DNA of 64,000 bases from Promethearchaeota archaeon (GTDB taxonomy: Archaea; Asgardarchaeota; Lokiarchaeia; Sigyniarchaeales; SOKP01), in the NCBI GenBank assembly GCA_048940925.1, contig JBHLOC010000001.1, positions 192,001-256,000 on the forward strand. Direction: 5' to 3'. The translations under genes and the position numbers were made by a program. Shown piece after piece: positions 9,801 through 29,631 of the stretch. Each line of letters starts with the position of its first letter. The first letter of the stretch is position 1. Under the pieces are notes generated by a model. It was given only the letters and a program-made list of their open reading frames with translations. It ran no database searches and was not told the DNA's origin.

Positions 9801-11021
9801 TTAAATTTCAGGGGGACTAGGTAAATCTTTTCTTCCTTCCTCACTAAAGATAGATCTATTAAAAGTGTTCTTAGTACTACTTAAAACGTCTTGTCTTTCA
9901 ACGTGGGAGGCTGTACCACCAACTAAGCGCAATGAATTAAAAAATTCATCATAAGTAAGTAATTCTGTACTAATAGCTTTTAATAACGCAACTCTAATTC
10001 CCCTTTCAATATCAGAACCAGAATACCCATATGTTAATCTTAATAATCCACTTATCTTACTTTTCTTATTAATTTCTTCCCATAAAATATTATCATCGAA
10101 TTCTGAAATTTTTCGGCCTAATTTGGTTTGTAATTCCTTAGCAATCAGCTGAATTTCTATATATTCATTATTTAAATTCGAAAATATTGAGTTATCAACG
10201 CCTATTTTTGCATTCTTTATTTGATTGACAAATGATTCAATAATTTTTTTGCGTAAATGATAATCAGGGAAATTGAATTCAAAGTGGAATGTGAAGCGAC
10301 GCCAAATCGCGGAATCAAGCTGGTGTTGATGATTAGTTGCACCGAAAACTGCTAATGGGACACCTTCATAATTAATCCTGTCGATAACTTGTAAAAAAGA
10401 AATTACAGCTCTTTTAATTTCTCCAACTTCATGAACATTTGACCTTTCAGAGCCAATAGCATCAATTTCATCGAAAAACAGGATAAAGGCTCCTCTCTCT
10501 TTTGAAATTTCTGCTGCTAATTCAATAACACCTCTAATGTTCTTTATTGTGTCTCCCAATAATGGCGATACAAGTCTATCGGATTCTACAATACATATAG
10601 GTATATCGTATTTTTTAGCAAATCCCCTTGTTAAAGAAGTTTTACCAGTACCAGGAGGACCATATAGAAGTACTGTTAAATTAGGGGTCAATTTTGTATC
10701 CTTTAGTTGTTCTGTAAACTCCTCGTATTTTATCAAAGCTCTAAAAAAATCATCTAAAATTTCCTTTTTTATTTCATTTCCTAAAATATCTTCTACGGAC
10801 TCTTTTATATCTGCTGAAAAATATACAGCTCCATACTTTCCTAATCGCTCTTTTATCACATCGTCGCTATAAATGGTCTTTGCCTCACCATAATCTTTCT
10901 TTTCTGTAGTGATTGAAGATTTGATACTGAATTCTTCTTTTTTGTATTCTAAGTGAGCTTCATATGTTTTTCCTCTAAAGTGTTTTTTTTTACATAATGT
11001 GCAGTAATAAGGTAAAGACAT
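9801..11021 (-). CDS. Classic-clade AAA+ ATPase (IetA/COG1223-like) with N-terminal C2H2-type zinc finger
   Basis: GPPGTGKT, FFDEID, GEIKRAVISFLQ, ATNHQHQLDSAIWRRF, GYSGSDIE; N-terminal CTLC..H..H. Confidence 0.88.
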   Translation of the reverse strand: MSLPYYCTLCKKKHFRGKTYEAHLEYKKEEFSIKSSITTEKKDYGEAKTIYSDDVIKERLGKYGAVYFSADIKESVEDILGNEIKKEILDDFFRALIKYEEFTEQLKDTKLTPNLTVLLYGPPGTGKTSLTRGFAKKYDIPICIVESDRLVSPLLGDTIKNIRGVIELAAEISKERGAFILFFDEIDAIGSERSNVHEVGEIKRAVISFLQVIDRINYEGVPLAVFGATNHQHQLDSAIWRRFTFHFEFNFPDYHLRKKIIESFVNQIKNAKIGVDNSIFSNLNNEYIEIQLIAKELQTKLGRKISEFDDNILWEEINKKSKISGLLRLTYGYSGSDIERGIRVALLKAISTELLTYDEFFNSLRLVGGTASHVERQDVLSSTKNTFNRSIFSEEGRKDLPSPPEI

Positions 11022-11139
11022 AATTTCATCAACTAATTTTTGTTATTTCATTTTTTATTGTTATTATTTTATTCTTAAATTAAAGGATGAGATATAATTT
11101 ATTGTTGAAATAAATTATAATTATCCCATTTTTTGTGTA

Positions 11140-12447
11140 TCATAAATTTTTCCTTTCTTTATCAAATTTTTCACAGTAATTTGCTATTTGATTAATAAAG
11201 TCTTTAAGGTTATCAATTTGAGACCCTATGAAATTAAATATTTCCTTGCGGTATTGAATAGAATCTCTAATTTTCATTTTGTCTATCCCTAGATAATTAG
11301 GAAAGCATATAAGTTTCATTAAATAAGGAAGGATCTTTTCGTTTGTTTGTAAATCTTTAAAGATTGCATAAAAAATATTCTCATCAGACAATTTCCATTT
11401 TAATATACCCATGTAAATCAAAAAAGCAAAATTCATTGATATCCAATTTACTAATTCCCTTGATAGAAATCCCCTTCTTTGAGAAGCGAATGCCAAATAA
11501 TAAGTTATTAATGTTTCATTGCTAAATTGAGGTAATAGTCTTATAGTACCATCAGTTTGCTTAATTTCACGTAAAAAATTATTATCAAGTAGAATATCAA
11601 CAAAATCTTCTTGTGGTGCTAGAAATATACCATCAATTAACCGTAAACCTATACGTTCAACCACCTTTTCTATGGCTTCTTCTTCAGCGTTCGCAATTGA
11701 ATCAATATAGGGTAGAAATACATCATTTTTTAAGATCATTGGAATTTCATAATTCTCTTTTTCAGGAAATTCCCCAAAATTAGGGTCCAAATTATAAAGT
11801 GAGGTTATATTATTAATAATTTGATATACTTTTGGAGAAATAACTGGAATTTCAAAATAATCTGAAATTTCTAATTTTTCTCTATAATAAGTATGGGATT
11901 GTAATATGTGGCGTTGGCATTCATAGAAATCTGGTGAATTTTGTAACAATTTTTCATATATGATTTTTAAACTTGAGCCTCTTGGGAATAATTTTTCTTC
12001 AATGAATTTTACTAATTGGTAGAGATAAGTATTCTCTAAATTTAGTTCATCGGGATTAGTGATATGACGCAAAATGTTTAAAGCATCTACAGATTCATGC
12101 AAAAAATCTATTATATAATCTTTAATATCTATTATTGGAATTTCTTCTCGATATTTTATTATAAAGTCTTTAACAATCTCATATACATTTGATCTATACA
12201 TAGCAGAAAATTCTGAAAGCGCTCTAACTTTACGTATATTTCTTTTTTCTTCTTCCTGTCGAATTTTATCTAAAACCTCAGTATCAAATAGCAGATCAGG
12301 ATCTAAATCAATAATTATTCTTCTTGTTTCTCTTAAAATAGGACGCATATGGCTTATAAATGTTAAATACCTGGGAAGGATATCTGTCCATTTTTCTCTT
12401 TTCCTTCCAGGTTTTATAGTTCTTGTTGATTTTTTTTTATAACTCAT
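11140..12447 (-). CDS. Hypothetical protein with probable winged-helix segment
   Basis: 435-aa ORF; DILLDNNFLREIKQTDGTIRLLP resembles a WH wing. Confidence 0.7.
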   Translation of the reverse strand: MSYKKKSTRTIKPGRKREKWTDILPRYLTFISHMRPILRETRRIIIDLDPDLLFDTEVLDKIRQEEEKRNIRKVRALSEFSAMYRSNVYEIVKDFIIKYREEIPIIDIKDYIIDFLHESVDALNILRHITNPDELNLENTYLYQLVKFIEEKLFPRGSSLKIIYEKLLQNSPDFYECQRHILQSHTYYREKLEISDYFEIPVISPKVYQIINNITSLYNLDPNFGEFPEKENYEIPMILKNDVFLPYIDSIANAEEEAIEKVVERIGLRLIDGIFLAPQEDFVDILLDNNFLREIKQTDGTIRLLPQFSNETLITYYLAFASQRRGFLSRELVNWISMNFAFLIYMGILKWKLSDENIFYAIFKDLQTNEKILPYLMKLICFPNYLGIDKMKIRDSIQYRKEIFNFIGSQIDNLKDFINQIANYCEKFDKERKNL

Positions 12448-12471
12448 TTATGAAATATACAACTCCCTATC

Positions 12472-13611
12472 TTATTCTTCCTCATATCCTACTAAAATTT
12501 CAGTGAAAATATTAGATATTTCAACAAAGATTGGTATTTCAACTCGACATAAATTCCCAAGGATCCATTTATTAACATCTTTAAGGAGAAATCTTATTTG
12601 ATTATGGATTTTTTTATTAATCTCGGAATCCACTATTTTTGAGAGCCATAAACCTCCTCCTACTCTATATGCAACAATTTTAATGAGTGGTTCAAACAAG
12701 GGTTCTAACACTTGTTTTATCATCCATGATTTCGGAATAACACTCATATTCTCCGCTTTAAAAGTGGGGTCGTTTAAAATTGGATTCGTTTCATCAACAG
12801 ATAATTTAGGCATAAAACTTAGCAACAATATTAGAGCAAAAATTGCAGATATACCATTAATTGTAAAAGAACCCCCGATTTTATTGATATCATCCCTATA
12901 AATAGCAACATTAGCAAGAAACATACAAATAAATACGTTTCTATCAAAATCTTCAGAAACATAAGCATAACCTAATTCTTCGTCAATAACCAAGTATTTT
13001 TCTTCAAGAATTTGAATAATATCATCCGGAAAAGTATAAAATGTATATACTTTTTCCTCACTCCTTCTTATATCTTTCTCAATAAGGAGCTCTTTTGAAA
13101 CAAGGCCAAACATACCAACTAATTCTTCAAGCTGCTTTTTTATATAATGTTTGGGTTTATTAGGATCTCCAAACATTGCAAAAAATTGATGATCGACAAT
13201 GTGAAAATCATTTCTTTTACTAAATGCTTCCACCATTCTATCTATTATTGGTCCTTGAGCTCCTGAGGCAATAGCTTTAGCTTTTGATGTTACAAATCCA
13301 TTTAATAATTCATTTATAATGAAATCTTGTTCATGATTTCTTGATTGTAAAATTAACTCGACTGCTTCAGAAAAGCTTTTAGTGTTTGGAAAAAACGCAT
13401 TTTGTATCTTTTCATTTATAGATTTTACAAAAATATCTCCATTATTATTAGGGAAATGAAGTTTCATATTGTTTAATCTTTGGATAAGTGCTTCTTTGGC
13501 TCCTGGAATATTTTCAACATCTCTTTTTTGTAATTCTTCTATTGCTTTTTCAAGTCCATTTTCAAAATCAATCAATAACTTTTTCCACGTTGTATCTTGC
13601 ACTTCTACCAT
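12472..13611 (-). CDS. Hypothetical protein with probable winged-helix segment
   Basis: 379-aa ORF; KKQLEELVGMFGLVSK...VYTFYTF resembles a WH helix-wing. Confidence 0.7.
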   Translation of the reverse strand: MVEVQDTTWKKLLIDFENGLEKAIEELQKRDVENIPGAKEALIQRLNNMKLHFPNNNGDIFVKSINEKIQNAFFPNTKSFSEAVELILQSRNHEQDFIINELLNGFVTSKAKAIASGAQGPIIDRMVEAFSKRNDFHIVDHQFFAMFGDPNKPKHYIKKQLEELVGMFGLVSKELLIEKDIRRSEEKVYTFYTFPDDIIQILEEKYLVIDEELGYAYVSEDFDRNVFICMFLANVAIYRDDINKIGGSFTINGISAIFALILLLSFMPKLSVDETNPILNDPTFKAENMSVIPKSWMIKQVLEPLFEPLIKIVAYRVGGGLWLSKIVDSEINKKIHNQIRFLLKDVNKWILGNLCRVEIPIFVEISNIFTEILVGYEEE

Positions 13612-13640
13612 ATTTACTCCTCTACTATTAAAAATATCTA

Positions 13641-14603
13641 CTAATTAATATTCCAATTTAATTCCGTTGATATTTTTTTTAATGCGCTAATTAAAGGTTT
13701 TATTAGCTTCTTGTCATAAATATTTGGAGAGGATATTCCTCTCTGAGTTTTCCACCCCATTTGGGTACCTTCTCCCATTTCTCTTTGTCCAAATTTTAAA
13801 ATATTGCTAAGATCTCTTACCCACCAGTAAAATCTTAACCATTTTCTGTTTGGATTATCTTTTGAATATATGACTACTAATGCTTTCCATTCACCCATCA
13901 ACCATTTCACTGTTATCCCGCTTATGGGAAGGTAAAAGTTTATTGGAAAATTTCCGTGAAACCGCAAATCGAGATCTGTTGGGGCAATGTTAAAAATCGG
14001 TTGATTATATCCTTCTAATATTACTATTTCTCCACAATGTTGACATTCATAATGTGATTTCATTTTGTCCATTTTATTTGCACATTTTGGGCACGTTCTG
14101 TTTTCAATAATCCTATACTTAATGATTTCTAAATTTTTTTCTTTTTCTAAATCTTCTTCTGATTTAGACCCCTGTTTTCCAAAGCTTCCACCCCAACTCC
14201 AAATATCATCAAATGATTCATCAAATTTTTCTAAAGCAATAATGGTATTATGAAGTACTTCTCTATCATAAATTTTAAACATCCCTGCATGTTGCAGATT
14301 TTTCCACCAAGATAATCTAACGTACTTTTCCTCTTTTAAATAGGCACTATGACAAATTAAAGCCGCAAATATTCGATTTTCGGTTTTAATTATAGTAATT
14401 CCTTTCTCACAAATTTCATATTGTTTATTTAAACTAGCATTTTTATGAAAATATTCACCATCCTGAAATTCACCTTTTTCGATCTTTGCTTTTTCCTCAG
14501 TAGATTCTTTATCTTTCTCTTTTACTATCTTTTTACATTGAGGACATTGAAAAATTCCAGCAACTAAAGGTTCCATCTCTATATTACATACAGGACATTT
14601 CAA
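13641..14603 (-). CDS. Duplicated (zinc ribbon + PC4-like) protein
   Basis: CPVC..CPQC and CPKC..CQHC, each followed by a repeat (KYVRLSWW..KIYDREVLHNTIIALEKF / KWLRFYWW..NIYDKKLIKPLISALKKI). Confidence 0.6.
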   Translation of the reverse strand: MKCPVCNIEMEPLVAGIFQCPQCKKIVKEKDKESTEEKAKIEKGEFQDGEYFHKNASLNKQYEICEKGITIIKTENRIFAALICHSAYLKEEKYVRLSWWKNLQHAGMFKIYDREVLHNTIIALEKFDESFDDIWSWGGSFGKQGSKSEEDLEKEKNLEIIKYRIIENRTCPKCANKMDKMKSHYECQHCGEIVILEGYNQPIFNIAPTDLDLRFHGNFPINFYLPISGITVKWLMGEWKALVVIYSKDNPNRKWLRFYWWVRDLSNILKFGQREMGEGTQMGWKTQRGISSPNIYDKKLIKPLISALKKISTELNWNIN

Positions 14604-14605
14604 AT

Positions 14606-15706
14606 TTATTCTTCACTCATAGATATTATCAATCTTTCATAATCCAAATTCAAGAGCTTTAATTCTTTCTTTGTTAATTTTTTAATTTTCTTGTTAATAT
14701 GAATCAATTCTTTTCTAAGATCGATTAAAGTATTTTGAATATTATTTAAGATATTTTCTTCATTGTATGTAACTTTTTCAATAAATTCAAGATACCTGAA
14801 CTTTTTATTCTTGCCTGAATAAAATTTTTTTAATTCAACTATATTATCTTCAATCTTTTTCATTTGATATCTTAACTTTAGTAATAATAATAACTTCGAT
14901 TTCCATTCTTTAAATAAAGTACTTTCATTATCAACCTTGTCGAACTTAAATTTATCCGAAAGTGGAATCTTCTCATCTTTCAAGTATTTTATTATTTCTT
15001 TATTCTCATCAATAGCTTTATGTATTTTTTTTAGAACAGGTTTAGTGTTTAAAGTAGAGTCGAAAATCTCAACAAATTCGTTAATTTTTTCTTTAATTTC
15101 AATAAATCTTTGATAAAATCCATCAATAGTTACTTCTATTTTAATTAATTGATATATGTTCCCGAATTGATCTAAAATATAGTATAAATCGTCTGATAAA
15201 GCATAATCATGTTCACCAATTTCATAAATTAAACGGTGGATAACACTCGTTTTCTCACATCTTACACCCTTTAATCTTGTTAATGCTAAATTGAAATTTC
15301 TTCGCGTTAATGACTTAAATTTTTTGTTTATTAGTAAGTAAAGAGTATCATCTGGAATAGATATTATATCTTGTTCTATGGTTATTGTTTCTTCTCCTAG
15401 TTTTATTATAAAATCATCATCTTTTTGTTCAAACTCTCTTTTACTGCGAATATTTTTAATTAGTCCTAAGTCAATGTATATTTCAATGAATTCTTCTTCC
15501 CAGGAATTAATAAGATTACTTTTATAAATTTCGTCTAACAATAATATTTTACTATAAGATTCATTGATATTTACTTCGCTCAAATCTTTAAACAAATCAT
15601 TTCTAATGATATATAGAAATAATATAATATACCTCATATCAATATCGTCTAAAATGGTGTTAATTAAATTTACATCATCTTCTAATGTTAAGTCATTATG
15701 TTCCAT
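14606..15706 (-). CDS. Winged-helix + helical-bundle hypothetical protein
   Basis: LTRRNFNLALTRLK..LIYEIGEHDYALSD (WH-like) followed by long helices. Confidence 0.65.
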   Translation of the reverse strand: MEHNDLTLEDDVNLINTILDDIDMRYIILFLYIIRNDLFKDLSEVNINESYSKILLLDEIYKSNLINSWEEEFIEIYIDLGLIKNIRSKREFEQKDDDFIIKLGEETITIEQDIISIPDDTLYLLINKKFKSLTRRNFNLALTRLKGVRCEKTSVIHRLIYEIGEHDYALSDDLYYILDQFGNIYQLIKIEVTIDGFYQRFIEIKEKINEFVEIFDSTLNTKPVLKKIHKAIDENKEIIKYLKDEKIPLSDKFKFDKVDNESTLFKEWKSKLLLLLKLRYQMKKIEDNIVELKKFYSGKNKKFRYLEFIEKVTYNEENILNNIQNTLIDLRKELIHINKKIKKLTKKELKLLNLDYERLIISMSEE

Positions 15707-15918
15707 GCCTAAAATCCACTCAATTATAATTAAACTTTCAAACTATTTCAGCCAAAAAGAGTGATTTAGCTAATTAAGCATCCCTAAAAAATTTTTCTAA
15801 AACCACTTAAAATAATTCTAAATAAAAGCAAAAAATTTTTAGCAAGTGTTTCTAATTAATTAATTAGAAATTAATAACTTATTATTGTAATTAATATCAT
15901 TTTTTGGAGAAAATTAAT

Positions 15919-16497
15919 ATGGGACGTCGAAAAAGAAAACAAGTCAGCCCCAAAAGAGTAAAAAGAGTACCTAAAATTTTCACATGTCCTGAATGCGGTG
16001 AAAAGAGTGTAAAAGTGATTGATATAAAAAAAAAAGGTGCTTTTGCAACTGTGAAATGTGGAAATTGTGGATTAACAAAAGAAGTATTAGTTAATTCGAT
16101 TTCAGAACCTGTTGATGCGTTTGGGGATTTTATTGATATATATTATGCAGATCAGGAGCTCCAAAGGTTAGAACGACGTATTCAAAAATTAAAAGAAGAA
16201 AATGAATGGGGCGAACTAGCATTATCATATTCTATCCTATCAGATCTTTGTAAAACTAAAGCTGCATTATTATTAGAAGAAGAAGATGTTAATTTGGATG
16301 ATGTTAACAAATGGAAAATCAAGGCAGAAGAATATAAACAACTTGAAAAAAACACAATAATAAAACTTGATGCCGATGAATTAGAAAGAGGTGTCCGGAC
16401 TGATGAAGAATCTTTGTTTACTGAAAGCGAAACTAAAATAAAAAAAGAAAGAAAGTTAGATGACATCTTTGATGATCCTGGATTTCTAGAATTTTAA
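15919..16497 (+). CDS. elf1: Transcription elongation factor Elf1 with ~110-aa C-terminal extension
   Basis: MGRRKRK..FTCPECG..VKCGNCG..SEPVDAFGDFID; ATG at 15919 follows GGAG at 15906-15909. Confidence 0.85.
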   Translation: MGRRKRKQVSPKRVKRVPKIFTCPECGEKSVKVIDIKKKGAFATVKCGNCGLTKEVLVNSISEPVDAFGDFIDIYYADQELQRLERRIQKLKEENEWGELALSYSILSDLCKTKAALLLEEEDVNLDDVNKWKIKAEEYKQLEKNTIIKLDADELERGVRTDEESLFTESETKIKKERKLDDIFDDPGFLEF

Positions 16498-16673: not shown

Positions 16674-17129
16674 TTAACCCGATTGACTCTTTCTTTTAGC
16701 GAACAACTCTTTAAGCTCACCCATAATTGCACCTCTTAGAGATACTGGGCTTGCGGGACGGTTTGGTGCTGGAGCCGACCCTGGACCTCCAGGTGGTGGC
16801 GGTGGGCCTCCAGGAGGGCCTCCTGGTGGACTGCTCAGCGGTGGACCCCCCGGTGGGGCACCTAATGCAGGTGATGATACAGTAGATGTTGCGGAGGTTA
16901 CTGGACCACCTGCTTTAAGTGATGTAAGATCATTATTTATAGTTGTTAATTGATTTTGCAGATTAGTTACCCTTGTATTGACAGTTTGAAGACTTTGATC
17001 GACTAAATCAGAGATTTTTAGCACAATTTGCATTATTTTTTCAACAATATCTCCAAAATCATTGAGTTTTTCCTCTAGCGGAGCTTTTCGAGTAGTCTCT
17101 AAGAAGGAAGCAAATTCTTCTGCACACAT
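16674..17129 (-). CDS. Coiled-coil + polyproline + amphipathic basic helix protein (WASH/WAVE/VASP-like architecture)
   Basis: N-terminal heptads; GPPGGPPPPPGG; C-terminal RGAIMGELKELFAKRKSQSG. Confidence 0.6.
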   Translation of the reverse strand: MCAEEFASFLETTRKAPLEEKLNDFGDIVEKIMQIVLKISDLVDQSLQTVNTRVTNLQNQLTTINNDLTSLKAGGPVTSATSTVSSPALGAPPGGPPLSSPPGGPPGGPPPPPGGPGSAPAPNRPASPVSLRGAIMGELKELFAKRKSQSG

Positions 17130-17259: not shown

Positions 17260-17895
17260 CTAACTTAACTCATCAATAGAATCTTTTAATTTAAGCCATA
17301 AGGTATTTATTTCATCTCTTACTTCAATAAATTGTGTTATTTTTTTTATTAAGATATCACGGGCACGATCAAAATCTCGTTGAACATCATTTAACTCTTG
17401 GTCAAGAATGTTTAACTTATCTCCATCAATTAATTTATTTTTTGCTTTTTCAACATTTAAAGCTTTTTTTATTATTATTGATCTTTTACTCGCCAAATCA
17501 GATAGAGCATTGATAAATTCCTCTTTTTTTTCTACCAAATATTCTTTTTGAACAGCTATATCCTTAATTGAATTCAAATATTTATTATTAGCTTTAATAA
17601 ATTCATCATTTTTATGAATGATATCTTGATATAATTTAACTTCTTCATCTTTAATATTAGATCTATGTTCACGAGCTAAAGTTTGCATTTGTTTTAAAAC
17701 ATCTCTGAAGGTTCTATTTAGCATTTCTCTTGCATTATTTGTTTTAGTGATATGTTCCGCATATCTTTTTTGAGTACCAATTAAATTGATCTGTTCTTTA
17801 GCCAATTTTTTAAATTGAGACACTAATTCTTTTTCCATTTTAGCTAGTTCTAATTCATCTTCATGAGTAATAATAGGACTCATTATAAACCCCAT
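17260..17895 (-). CDS. All-helical ~210-aa protein, BAR-domain-like
   Basis: Three long amphipathic helices, almost no Pro/Gly; DKL..QEL..QRDFDRARDILIKKITQF resembles the SNX-BAR distal arm. Confidence 0.5.
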   Translation of the reverse strand: MGFIMSPIITHEDELELAKMEKELVSQFKKLAKEQINLIGTQKRYAEHITKTNNAREMLNRTFRDVLKQMQTLAREHRSNIKDEEVKLYQDIIHKNDEFIKANNKYLNSIKDIAVQKEYLVEKKEEFINALSDLASKRSIIIKKALNVEKAKNKLIDGDKLNILDQELNDVQRDFDRARDILIKKITQFIEVRDEINTLWLKLKDSIDELS

Positions 17896-20230: not shown

Positions 20231-20386
20231 TTAGTCTTTTGCCCCTAAAGCTTCTTTAACTTTCTCTAATTCTTCCATGCGTTTCTTCTTCTCTTCCTCT
20301 CTCTTTCTTAGCTCTTCTTCATCAACTTTCTGAAGTGAAACACCTTTTTTAATTTCATCTTGAAGTTCTTTATCTATTGGAGTCAT
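20231..20386 (-). CDS. Unannotated 51-aa WH2-motif protein (MTPIDKELQDEIKKGVSLQKVDEEELRKREEEKKKRMEELEKVKEALGAKD)
   Basis: Manually translated; ATG 20386, TAA 20231, GGTG SD-like site 10 nt upstream; LQDEIKKGVSLQKV fits the WH2 consensus LLxxIRxGxxLKKV. Confidence 0.7.
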   Translation of the reverse strand: MTPIDKELQDEIKKGVSLQKVDEEELRKREEEKKKRMEELEKVKEALGAKD

Positions 20387-26828: not shown

Positions 26829-27554
26829 TTGTTACACAATTTTTACTTGATTCATCAACACACAGGAATCTGTCTCATTCATAGGAAATATGGGACAATT
26901 GAGTTTAACCAAGACTTAGTAAGCGGTTTTCTAACTGCACTTAAAGATTTTTCAGTTGAATTCTCCAAGGGTTCAGGAGAATTAAAAGTTATAGATATGC
27001 AAGTATTTTATCTTCTGCTTGTTTTTAAGGAAGGTGTTTTATGTACAGCTGCAGCAGATAAAAATGATGATGCGAAGATCACTCATAAAGCTTTAACAGA
27101 CATAATTGACAAATTCATCGTTAAATTTGGAGATACTCTTAAGGAATGGTCTGGTGATGTTCGCATCTTTCGTGAATTCGAACAGGTGATTGATAATGTT
27201 TTAATTAATGGAAAGGTTGCTGAAATTAAGCTTACAATTCCAATTCTTAAAATATTCAAAAAAGACTTTCTTAAATCTCAGAAAAGGATTGCTAAAAAAG
27301 GTCTAGTTTTATCAGAGGAAGACTTGCGAGTAGTAAGTGAAAAGAAACCAGAATGGACATTAAAGAGATTACCAAAGCAGGTTATTACACAAGGATTTTT
27401 AGATGAAATAGAATATAAAATTGCCCATCTAGCTGATGGATTTCACACTATCCCTGAGATTGCTGAAGAGTCTGGTAAACCAGAATCACAAATTCAGAGA
27501 ATTATAAAAAATTTGGATGATTTAGATTTGATTTCTTATATTGAAATTAAATGA
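26829..27554 (+). CDS. Longin-like domain protein with C-terminal winged HTH
   Basis: GICLIHRKYG..DLVSGFLTALKDFS..W.GD...F (longin pattern); DGFHTIPEIAEE..IIKNLDDLDLI (wHTH). Confidence 0.75.
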   Translation: MLHNFYLIHQHTGICLIHRKYGTIEFNQDLVSGFLTALKDFSVEFSKGSGELKVIDMQVFYLLLVFKEGVLCTAAADKNDDAKITHKALTDIIDKFIVKFGDTLKEWSGDVRIFREFEQVIDNVLINGKVAEIKLTIPILKIFKKDFLKSQKRIAKKGLVLSEEDLRVVSEKKPEWTLKRLPKQVITQGFLDEIEYKIAHLADGFHTIPEIAEESGKPESQIQRIIKNLDDLDLISYIEIK

Positions 27555-27713
27555 TAGTGAACTTATTCTTTAGGTTATAATTAATTTCAAAATTAGTTTT
27601 AAGTTGTTAATCAATTTTCCTTGTTCAAATAATTATAGCAAATAATTTAATAGTAAAACATTATAGAATTAAATAAAAATATTTTTGAGAGTAGGTTTAC
27701 TAAATAAATTAGG

Positions 27714-29186
27714 ATGAATGTTATTAAAATTGATGAAAATATATACGAGATTCCCCCAAAAGCTTTGATGACACGGATTCACGGCAACATTGAAAAATTT
27801 CAAATGAGAGTACCAGTAAGGATTTATGCTAATGACTATATTTTAGAAAAAATTAAGTTAGATCGTACTCTTGATCAAATTTGTAATGTTGCTTGTTTAG
27901 AAGGAATAAAAAAACATGCTATTGCATTATCAGATGCACATCAAGGGTATGGTTTTTGTATTGGAGGTGTTTGTGGTACAGAGGCAGGATCTGGTATGAT
28001 ATCACCTGGAGGTGTAGGATATGATATTAATTGTGGAGTTCGCCTTTTACGTACTAGTTTAATGTTTAAAGATATTAAAAATAACCTTCCAACCTTGATT
28101 AATACGATTTTTAAGAATATCCCTTCAGGTTTAGGATCTAAAGGTAAATTAAATATAAGCTATTCAGATTTAGATAAAGTTTTAAACGCGGGAGTTAACT
28201 GGGCATTAGATAATGACTATGCAATCGAAGAAGATATTAAATTTTTAGAAGAAAATGGATGTTTGAAAGATGCAGATGCTAGTTTAGTCTCCCAAAAAGC
28301 AAAACAACGCGCTATTAAACAATTAGGTTCCTTAGGAAGTGGGAATCATTTCATTGAAATTCAAAAAGTAGATAAGATTTATAATAATAATGTTGCCAAA
28401 AAGCTAGGAATCCTTGAGAACAATCAGATAACATTAATGGTTCATACAGGGAGTAGAGCTCTAGGTCATCAAGTTTGTACTGATAGTTTACGGAATATTG
28501 AGCAAGCAATGAAAAAGTATAAGATTAAAGTTCCAGATAGAGAACTAGCTTGTGTTCCAGCAGATACACCTGAGGCTCAGAGCTATTTAAAACAAATGGC
28601 TTGTGCTGCCAATTTTGGTTTTACTAATCGTCAGTTGATAACTCATTGGATAAGAGAATCATTTCAACGAATATTTAGTAATGATATTGATGCTTTAGGA
28701 CTTCATTTAATATATGGTGTTTGCCATAATATTTTAAAAATAGAGGAACACGAAATTGATGGCCAAAAGATGAAATTAAACATTCATCGTAAGGGTGCAA
28801 CTAGAGCTTTTCCGCCAGGTCATCCAGTACTACCCCCAGATTATAAAGAGATTGGTCAACCTGCTCTGATTCCTGGAACAATGGGCTCAGCCTCTTATTT
28901 ATGTGTAGGAAAACCAAAAGCAATGGATTTATCCTTTGGATCTACTGCGCATGGATCTGGTCGTTTAATGTCTAGAACAAAAGCAACTAAAAGATATTGG
29001 GGAGCTAAAGTAAAGGAAGATTTAGGAAATAAAGGCATTTTAATTAAAAGCGCATCAATGAAAGTTTTGGCCGAAGAGAGTCCTGGAGCTTATAAAGATA
29101 TTGATCAGGTAGTTCAGGTTAGTCATGATCTTGGAATTGTTGAAAAAATAGTAAAATTAGTACCTATCGGAGTTGTGAAAGGATAG
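27714..29186 (+). CDS. rtcB: tRNA-splicing ligase RtcB
   Basis: DAHQGYGF, GVGYDINCGVRL, GSGNHF, HTGSR, HRKGATR, HGSGR. Confidence 0.97.
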   Translation: MNVIKIDENIYEIPPKALMTRIHGNIEKFQMRVPVRIYANDYILEKIKLDRTLDQICNVACLEGIKKHAIALSDAHQGYGFCIGGVCGTEAGSGMISPGGVGYDINCGVRLLRTSLMFKDIKNNLPTLINTIFKNIPSGLGSKGKLNISYSDLDKVLNAGVNWALDNDYAIEEDIKFLEENGCLKDADASLVSQKAKQRAIKQLGSLGSGNHFIEIQKVDKIYNNNVAKKLGILENNQITLMVHTGSRALGHQVCTDSLRNIEQAMKKYKIKVPDRELACVPADTPEAQSYLKQMACAANFGFTNRQLITHWIRESFQRIFSNDIDALGLHLIYGVCHNILKIEEHEIDGQKMKLNIHRKGATRAFPPGHPVLPPDYKEIGQPALIPGTMGSASYLCVGKPKAMDLSFGSTAHGSGRLMSRTKATKRYWGAKVKEDLGNKGILIKSASMKVLAEESPGAYKDIDQVVQVSHDLGIVEKIVKLVPIGVVKG

Positions 29187-29193
29187 CTAAATT

Positions 29194-29631
29194 TTAAATA
29201 TCAAAAACAACATCTATTTCAATTTTATTCTTTTTTTCTTCAATTTTCATCATATTATATGTGATAGCTTTTACTTCTGTCCCAACTTCATGCTTTTCAA
29301 TATTAAAGACTTCACCTTTGGCAATAGCTTCTAACTTATAATTATCATTTTTTTTATTAATTCTTTTTACTTTAACTGAACTAAATACTAATTCTTCTAC
29401 ATCAAAGATATAAAGAAATTCTGAGAGAAAATCAAAGAGTAATGCCTCCATGTCTTCTGATACAATTTCTATAATTTTTTTTTTTTTAGGAAGTATTAAT
29501 TTTAAATTAGGACTTATGGTTGTCATTAAACTATAAACTACTTGCTCAAAAGCTCCTTCTAAAGTTTTTGAATATGCCTTTATGTAAATATCCGCTGTAT
29601 GATCTAAGAATTTAAAGCCTTCTTCTTTCAT
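29194..29631 (-). CDS. Archease
   Basis: DHTADI, EVKAITY, VVFDI; convergent with rtcB. Confidence 0.95.
   Translation of the reverse strand: MKEEGFKFLDHTADIYIKAYSKTLEGAFEQVVYSLMTTISPNLKLILPKKKKIIEIVSEDMEALLFDFLSEFLYIFDVEELVFSSVKVKRINKKNDNYKLEAIAKGEVFNIEKHEVGTEVKAITYNMMKIEEKKNKIEIDVVFDI

Follow-up and report, generated by a model that had tools for sequence, protein, structure and literature searches.

A likely BAR-fold protein family found across the archaeal order Promethearchaeales (Loki)

Research on eukaryogenesis has yet to explain how Asgard archaea form their long, dynamic protrusions. Eukaryotes employ BAR domains in membrane bending. Monomers of the BAR superfamily (AH/BAR) consist of three long antiparallel helices in about 200-250 aa, and they pair as antiparallel dimers with a central bundle and free helix 2-helix 3 tips. 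Pil1 and Lsp1 are very abundant, lattice-forming BARs without PX or SH3 domains, and arfaptin binds the GTPases Arl1, Arf and Rac. BAR domains are already known from Asgard archaea: the first Lokiarchaeum genome was reported to encode a putative BAR protein (PMC4917890), Vps5-BAR domains were reported from Asgard genomes (PMC10307638), and two BAR proteins were recovered in a Lokiactin co-immunoprecipitation (co-IP; PMC13716822; preprint 10.1101/2025.11.30.690169). The Loki BARs named so far are patchy in distribution and moderately expressed, whereas the family described here is near-universal in its order and its orthologue in the cultured Lokiarchaeum ossiferum is as abundant as Lokiactin, providing a testable candidate for shaping Loki membrane protrusions. 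A family that spans an order without a label and reaches the abundance of actin seems to be new within the literature searched, in which no paper naming its accessions was found; an earlier listing in survey supplements is possible.

The gene lies in a 64,000-nucleotide stretch of Promethearchaeota DNA (hereafter, the window; Table 1), and the names of its homologues likewise assign the window to Promethearchaeota, the Loki group of Asgard archaea. The initial annotation had reported a protein at 17260-17895, and we found a 211-aa ORF there on the minus strand, with both of the quoted protein segments matching letter for letter. The likely start is Met5 (ATG at 17883), since the database record is 207 aa long and most homologues start at this position; the other possible start, an ATG at 17895, gives the 211-aa form. 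The presence of 520 homologues (E<=0.001; 37 representatives at 50% identity), with conservation down to 15-35% identity, marks the ORF as a real gene. A promoter scan returned chance-level signals only. Databases label the family ‘hypothetical’, ‘uncharacterized’ or, automatically, ‘Smc’. As had been noted from the sequence, the protein is nearly free of Pro and Gly (1 Pro and 2 Gly in the 207-aa form). Its description as stand-alone also fits nearly all members seen. The exception, and the only fused form seen, is P0138, a 344-aa homologue with a CxxC-containing N-terminal extension ahead of the BAR-fold domain; a dedicated search for fused forms of greater length was negative, though as evidence this is weak.

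Table 1 Features of the BAR-fold gene, its product and the adjacent polyproline gene, in window coordinates.
Feature	Coordinates	Strand	Basis
Gene for the 207-aa protein with likely BAR fold	17260..17883	-	ORF, database record, homologue starts
Helix 1 (residues 7-70), predicted main dimer helix, antiparallel to the partner copy	17674..17865	-	AlphaFold2, dimer prediction
Stripe of conserved basic residues (R57/R60/K64/R71), not part of the predicted dimer interface	17671..17715	-	72-85% K/R, dimer prediction
Helix 2 (residues 79-149)	17437..17649	-	AlphaFold2
Basic helix 2-helix 3 tip (K146, K148, K150, K156), within interface-free residues 138-170	17416..17448	-	Model, dimer prediction, alignment
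Helix 3 (residues 154-202), with conserved R169/R173/K180/K181 and near-invariant W196 in the predicted dimer interface	17278..17424	-	AlphaFold2, alignment, dimer prediction
Co-oriented downstream gene: coiled coil, polyproline and conserved C-terminal helix (LRGAIMGELKELFAKRK)	16674..17129	-	ORF, alignment

We searched for the family with a profile and found it in 86/91 genomes of the order, with members in each of the four sampled families (f1 to f4, with f1 being the family of the window), and in none of the 225 other Asgard genomes searched (E<=1e-5). Outside the order, a broader profile added nothing but weak partial matches (E 1e-4 to 9e-4), which we took for coiled-coil noise. Since the family is seemingly confined to one order, it need not be ancestral to eukaryotic BARs. 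The window genome carries one copy, and many f2 genomes carry two. In the tree, a 31-row clade (support 100/99) unites the window protein with UYP46261.1 of L. ossiferum and QEE14721.1 of P. syntrophicum, while UYP46633.1 and QEE15058.1 fall into a separate paralogue clade. Being small, soluble and encoded in these two cultured organisms (UYP46261.1; QEE14721.1), the protein is testable at once. In one paralogue subgroup (L034:1-1722, L035:93-4633), the gene adjoins or lies close to an AAA ATPase with an N-terminus that looks MIT-like (Vps4-type) by eye, and a small longin/roadblock-like gene; these neighbours hint at an ESCRT link.

The AlphaFold2 model of the window protein has three long helices (pLDDT 93), and the model of the L. 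ossiferum orthologue, which is 35% identical, has the same fold (pLDDT 94). When 48,161 chains were searched with both models, ranks 1-8 were all BAR domains in each case. With the first model, the top eight comprised arfaptin (Z 13.7, 186 aligned, rmsd 4.8), SNX1 (Z 11.8) and Lsp1 (Z 11.7), together with further BAR domains including SNX5, ACAP, APPL and an I-BAR, all aligned over 165-192 residues; the best non-BAR chain was SipB, with Z 10.9 over 135 residues. The best 18 rows in a re-alignment were also all from the BAR superfamily, with Z values of 13.7 for arfaptin, 13.1 for FAM92A, 12.6 for SNX1, 12.1 for Lsp1 and 11.8 for Vps5. Foldseek placed BAR-superfamily domains in 46 of its best 50 rows with the first model, none with E <0.001, and a non-BAR bundle in the top row with the orthologue model. 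The rmsd of the model to BARs was ~3-8 Å, and the best non-BAR structural matches reached Z 10.9-11.3. Atlas structure rows were mixed and ESM Atlas feature searches were uninformative. The best Z values for BAR domains, 13.1-13.7, are borderline for helical bundles, as the structure-search tool warns that values under about 13 in helical proteins may reflect a mere common arrangement. The case therefore rests on the consistent, full-length enrichment of BAR domains and not on any single score. The predicted monomers, with their three long antiparallel helices, superpose on BAR domains over their full length. Of the two outcomes named beforehand as refuting this fold, the model does not show a straight coiled coil, and a PspA/ESCRT-III fold seems unlikely, as Vipp1 and PspA match the two-helix hairpin only and rank far below the BAR domains.

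A homodimer prediction had also been proposed, and it yielded an antiparallel homodimer with a central bundle and free tips. The two-copy prediction scored 0.79, compared to 0.00 for the best of three controls; in a benchmark this mark was reached by 20/30 solved pairs and 1/23 single chains, and resemblance to BAR dimers of solved structure may account for part of this result. The runs shared at least 91% of their contacts, with a partner pLDDT of at least 85. The closest contacts run from helix 1 to helix 1′ in antiparallel orientation, about a two-fold axis near residues 39-40 (mean i+j = 79). Helix 3 (171-207, including W196) and residues 76-91 make up the rest of the predicted interface, and the hairpin tip at residues 138-170 is free of it, although the free arms would be rather short judging from the model. 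The BAR fold is thus likely for the window protein, because BAR domains fill the first eight ranks of the structural matches and the predicted homodimer stands apart from its controls. On the strength of these models, we hold it to be highly probable that the three-helix BAR-like fold and its antiparallel dimer are real.

The basic segment pointed out in the initial annotation maps to the hairpin tip between helices 2 and 3 in the model. Its four lysines are basic in 70-82% of 40 diverse members, and the net charge over residues 132-160 is +5. The conserved basic sets on helix 1, at the tip and on helix 3 all lie outside the predicted interface, and the helix-1 stripe provides candidate membrane-facing residues. 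The net charge of the whole protein is near zero, so the conserved Lys/Arg could be salt bridges. An N-terminal amphipathic helix H0, a trait of N-BARs, is absent, with just 6 non-helical residues preceding helix 1, and no conserved Pro/Gly kinks within the helices were seen in the member alignment.

The abundance of the protein's orthologue was read from a published proteome of L. ossiferum. This orthologue, UYP46261.1, corresponds to GNAMCCOK_02568, with a listed mass of 23.9 kDa and a computed mass of 23.92 (29.26 listed and 29.28 computed for the next gene). Among about 3061 expressed proteins in the preprint proteome table, it ranks 46th (mean log2 22.0), above Lokiactin in 59th place (21.7), with Bar1 at 19.1 and Bar2 at 18.5; these ranks are rows of the sorted table, which leaves LFQ vs iBAQ unstated. 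In the Lokiactin co-IP, UYP46261.1 was detected with 20 peptides, at a log2FC of 0.71 and an adjusted p of 0.053. This enrichment is below the authors’ threshold and below that of Elf1 (log2FC 1.36), and therefore does not demonstrate actin binding.

The two L. ossiferum members of the family were considered as the published Bar1 and Bar2, and this was rejected as the accessions differ (Bar1/Bar2 are UYP45610.1 and UYP47554.1, Bar2 being retrieved by accession and Bar1 by mass and position rather than accession). The family of Bar1 and Bar2 matches human FAM92A at E=4e-19 and is FAM92/CIBAR-like, a likeness that we found stated in no paper; the same search, for which this match serves as the positive control, gave no FAM92A match for the family of the window protein. 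Profile comparison of the two families reached an hhalign probability of 47% over 52 columns, covering the tip and helix 3. A search with Bar1 as a single-protein query matched 30/91 genomes of the order, the window genome not among them. The Bar1/Bar2 family is found in L. ossiferum at L074:6671-7324 and L079:4207-5562, and Bar2 is a tandem duplication with two BAR domains. By sequence, the family of the window protein is separate from this FAM92-like family, which points to the existence of two or more different BAR-fold families in Loki archaea.

Our combined findings lead us to propose, as the probable reading of these models, that the protein is a stand-alone BAR-superfamily scaffold, forming a family of its own in Promethearchaeales, that coats the cell membrane. 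Each chain is predicted to fold into three long helices and two chains to pair antiparallel along helix 1, as supported by the control predictions. Helix 3 and the first part of helix 2 would complete a central bundle, from which the basic hairpin tips project, as they do in BAR dimers. From the conserved basic residues and from what is known of BAR proteins, the helix-1 stripe and the tips would engage anionic headgroups at the inner surface of the cell membrane. At actin-level abundance, the dimers could then form a structural coat or lattice, comparable to that of fungal Pil1/Lsp1, that stabilises curved membrane, for example at protrusions, necks or furrows. Scaffolding with modest curvature seems more likely than wedge insertion, since there is no N-terminal amphipathic helix, PX domain or conserved Pro/Gly kink.

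The initial annotation had termed the protein SNX/Vps5-type BAR-like. The BAR-like part of this name stands, in that the models predict three helices, antiparallel pairing of two copies and a basic tip, but the SNX/Vps5 subtype is not supported. There is no PX domain, the 207 aa being all three-helix; Vps5 (PF09325) is not among the Pfam matches listed for 47 members; and the Vps5 profile passed its cut-off in 0/301 Asgard genomes, with no match at the BAR-fold gene locus, where the Arfaptin profile run on the genome gave none either. The likeness to an SNX1/2 segment suggested in the initial annotation was not recovered, as residues 130-207 found no SNX among PDB sequences at E values of up to 10. 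In the absence of a PX domain, a Pfam Vps5 match and an SNX1 sequence match, the label is unsupported. An SNX-BAR/Vps5 orthologue working in a retromer-like coat would be in keeping with the presence of SNX1, SNX5 and Vps5 among the top structural matches (Z 11.7-12.6) and with the Asgard Vps5-BAR domains on record (PMC10307638). Yet these matches are not ranked above arfaptin or FAM92A, which score at least as high as SNX1 and Vps5 in the re-alignment, and no retromer genes are among the neighbours examined. Membership in this family is largely refuted, and such a role is extremely unlikely. A helical bundle that resembles BAR domains by convergence, and forms a filament, tether or chaperone in the cytoplasm that has nothing to do with membranes, would explain why neither the Pfam scans nor the profile searches of PDB sequences revealed reliable sequence homology to any BAR profile. 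Pfam listed no BAR, Vps5, Arfaptin or IMD family for the window protein and the 47 members; FCH reached E=0.012 at best, in 2/47 members. Matches of the profile to designed coiled coils and to PACSIN F-BAR sequences in the PDB were rejected as composition effects, the PACSIN match being out of register and scoring below a designed coiled coil. The borderline Z values, the non-significant Foldseek E values and the three-helix bundles of SipB, PcsB, PPE and HpHbR at Z 10-11 also favour convergence. Nonetheless, every type of BAR subfamily appears in the top ranks and aligns over the full length, whereas most other matches are partial, and the predicted dimer is antiparallel via helix 1 with free basic tips; we therefore consider convergence unlikely. 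It is less probable still that the fold is chiefly a platform for binding other proteins and does little to sculpt membranes itself. Arfaptin as the top structural match in both wide searches, the re-alignment and the Foldseek search with the first model, the many small GTPases encoded in Loki genomes (PMC4917890) and the neutral net charge agree with such a platform, but fold rank does not reveal a partner, the basic tip is conserved, and actin-level abundance is more in keeping with a structural role than with that of an adaptor.

A more restricted form of the stand-alone scaffold reading places the BAR protein in a two-gene module with its polyproline neighbour, akin to a split IRSp53/MIM or BAR-VASP, that couples membrane shape to Lokiactin assembly. 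The neighbour is 151 aa long, is present in 84/91 genomes of the order and is expressed in L. ossiferum (GNAMCCOK_02219). Its strongly conserved C-terminal helix recalls the F-actin-binding helix of Ena/VASP, making it a candidate minimal actin elongation factor, but it has no WH2 or VASP match. The two genes adjoin in 64/65 f1 genomes holding both, with the remaining pair split at contig ends, and they are also paired in 1/1 f3 (convergent), 3/3 f4 (one gene between) and 2/13 f2 (order swapped) genomes. However, the distance from the BAR gene to archease, used as a control, is at most 3 kb in f3, f4 and nine f2 genomes and typically 8-12 kb in f1, which argues for an old conserved neighbourhood. 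Because this linkage is conserved as well, the BAR-polyproline linkage is no proof of actin coupling, and synteny was dropped as proof of an actin link; the pairing may be inherited gene order. In addition, about 390 kb separates the two genes in L. ossiferum, they are also far apart in P. syntrophicum, the polyproline protein is about 11-fold less abundant than the BAR-fold orthologue in L. ossiferum, and the co-IP enrichment of the latter was below threshold and below Elf1. We thus regard the two-gene module as rather unlikely. The most far-reaching extension, in which an actin-level BAR lattice would be the main Loki membrane coat, shaping protrusions and coupled to Lokiactin by the polyproline neighbour as a prokaryotic counterpart of a split IRSp53/MIM-VASP, is in our judgement quite improbable.

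RtcB, a longin-wHTH gene and Elf1 recur close to the BAR gene. In the window, a longin-like and winged-helix gene, RtcB and archease at 26829-29631 are part of this order-wide conserved neighbourhood. The Elf1 homologue (15904-16497, plus strand; 197 aa, with a long C-terminal extension) adjoins the polyproline gene both here and in L. ossiferum. On the minus strand, positions 20231-20386 encode a 51-aa peptide with a WH2-like pattern, an amphipathic helix followed by an LQKV motif, and no Pfam WH2 match, and positions 9801-15706 are occupied by five consecutive genes in the same orientation. They encode an AAA ATPase that bears a C2H2-like finger at its N-terminus, a double zinc-ribbon protein and three proteins lacking significant Pfam matches.

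Compared with known systems, the window protein shares a long helical hairpin with PspA, Vipp1 and ESCRT-III, of which the first two helices alone align (Z 9.1-9.3, ranks 46-50). It shares the BAR fold and a basic tip before helix 3 with SNX-BAR/Vps5 proteins (SNX1, SNX5 and the Asgard Vps5-BAR proteins; PMC10307638), but unlike them has no PX domain, Vps5 profile match or Vps28 fusion. Bar1 and Bar2 have the lineage, a similar size and the BAR fold in common with it, and differ in an invariant Pro, an N-terminal extension and an abundance about 8-11 times lower than that of its L. ossiferum orthologue. The best structural match, the AH/BAR domain of arfaptin-2 (PDB 1I49, 4DCN; Foldseek TM 0.59-0.63), likewise has three helices and an antiparallel dimer, which is predicted for the window protein; the latter is only 9-11% identical to it, has no Pfam Arfaptin match and is without the N-terminal extension. 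The fungal eisosome BARs Pil1 and Lsp1 have no sequence homology to the window protein, for which a lattice is a proposal, but they are among its lowest-rmsd BAR matches (2.9-3.8 Å over about 166 residues) and, by analogy, may be the proteins that work most like it.
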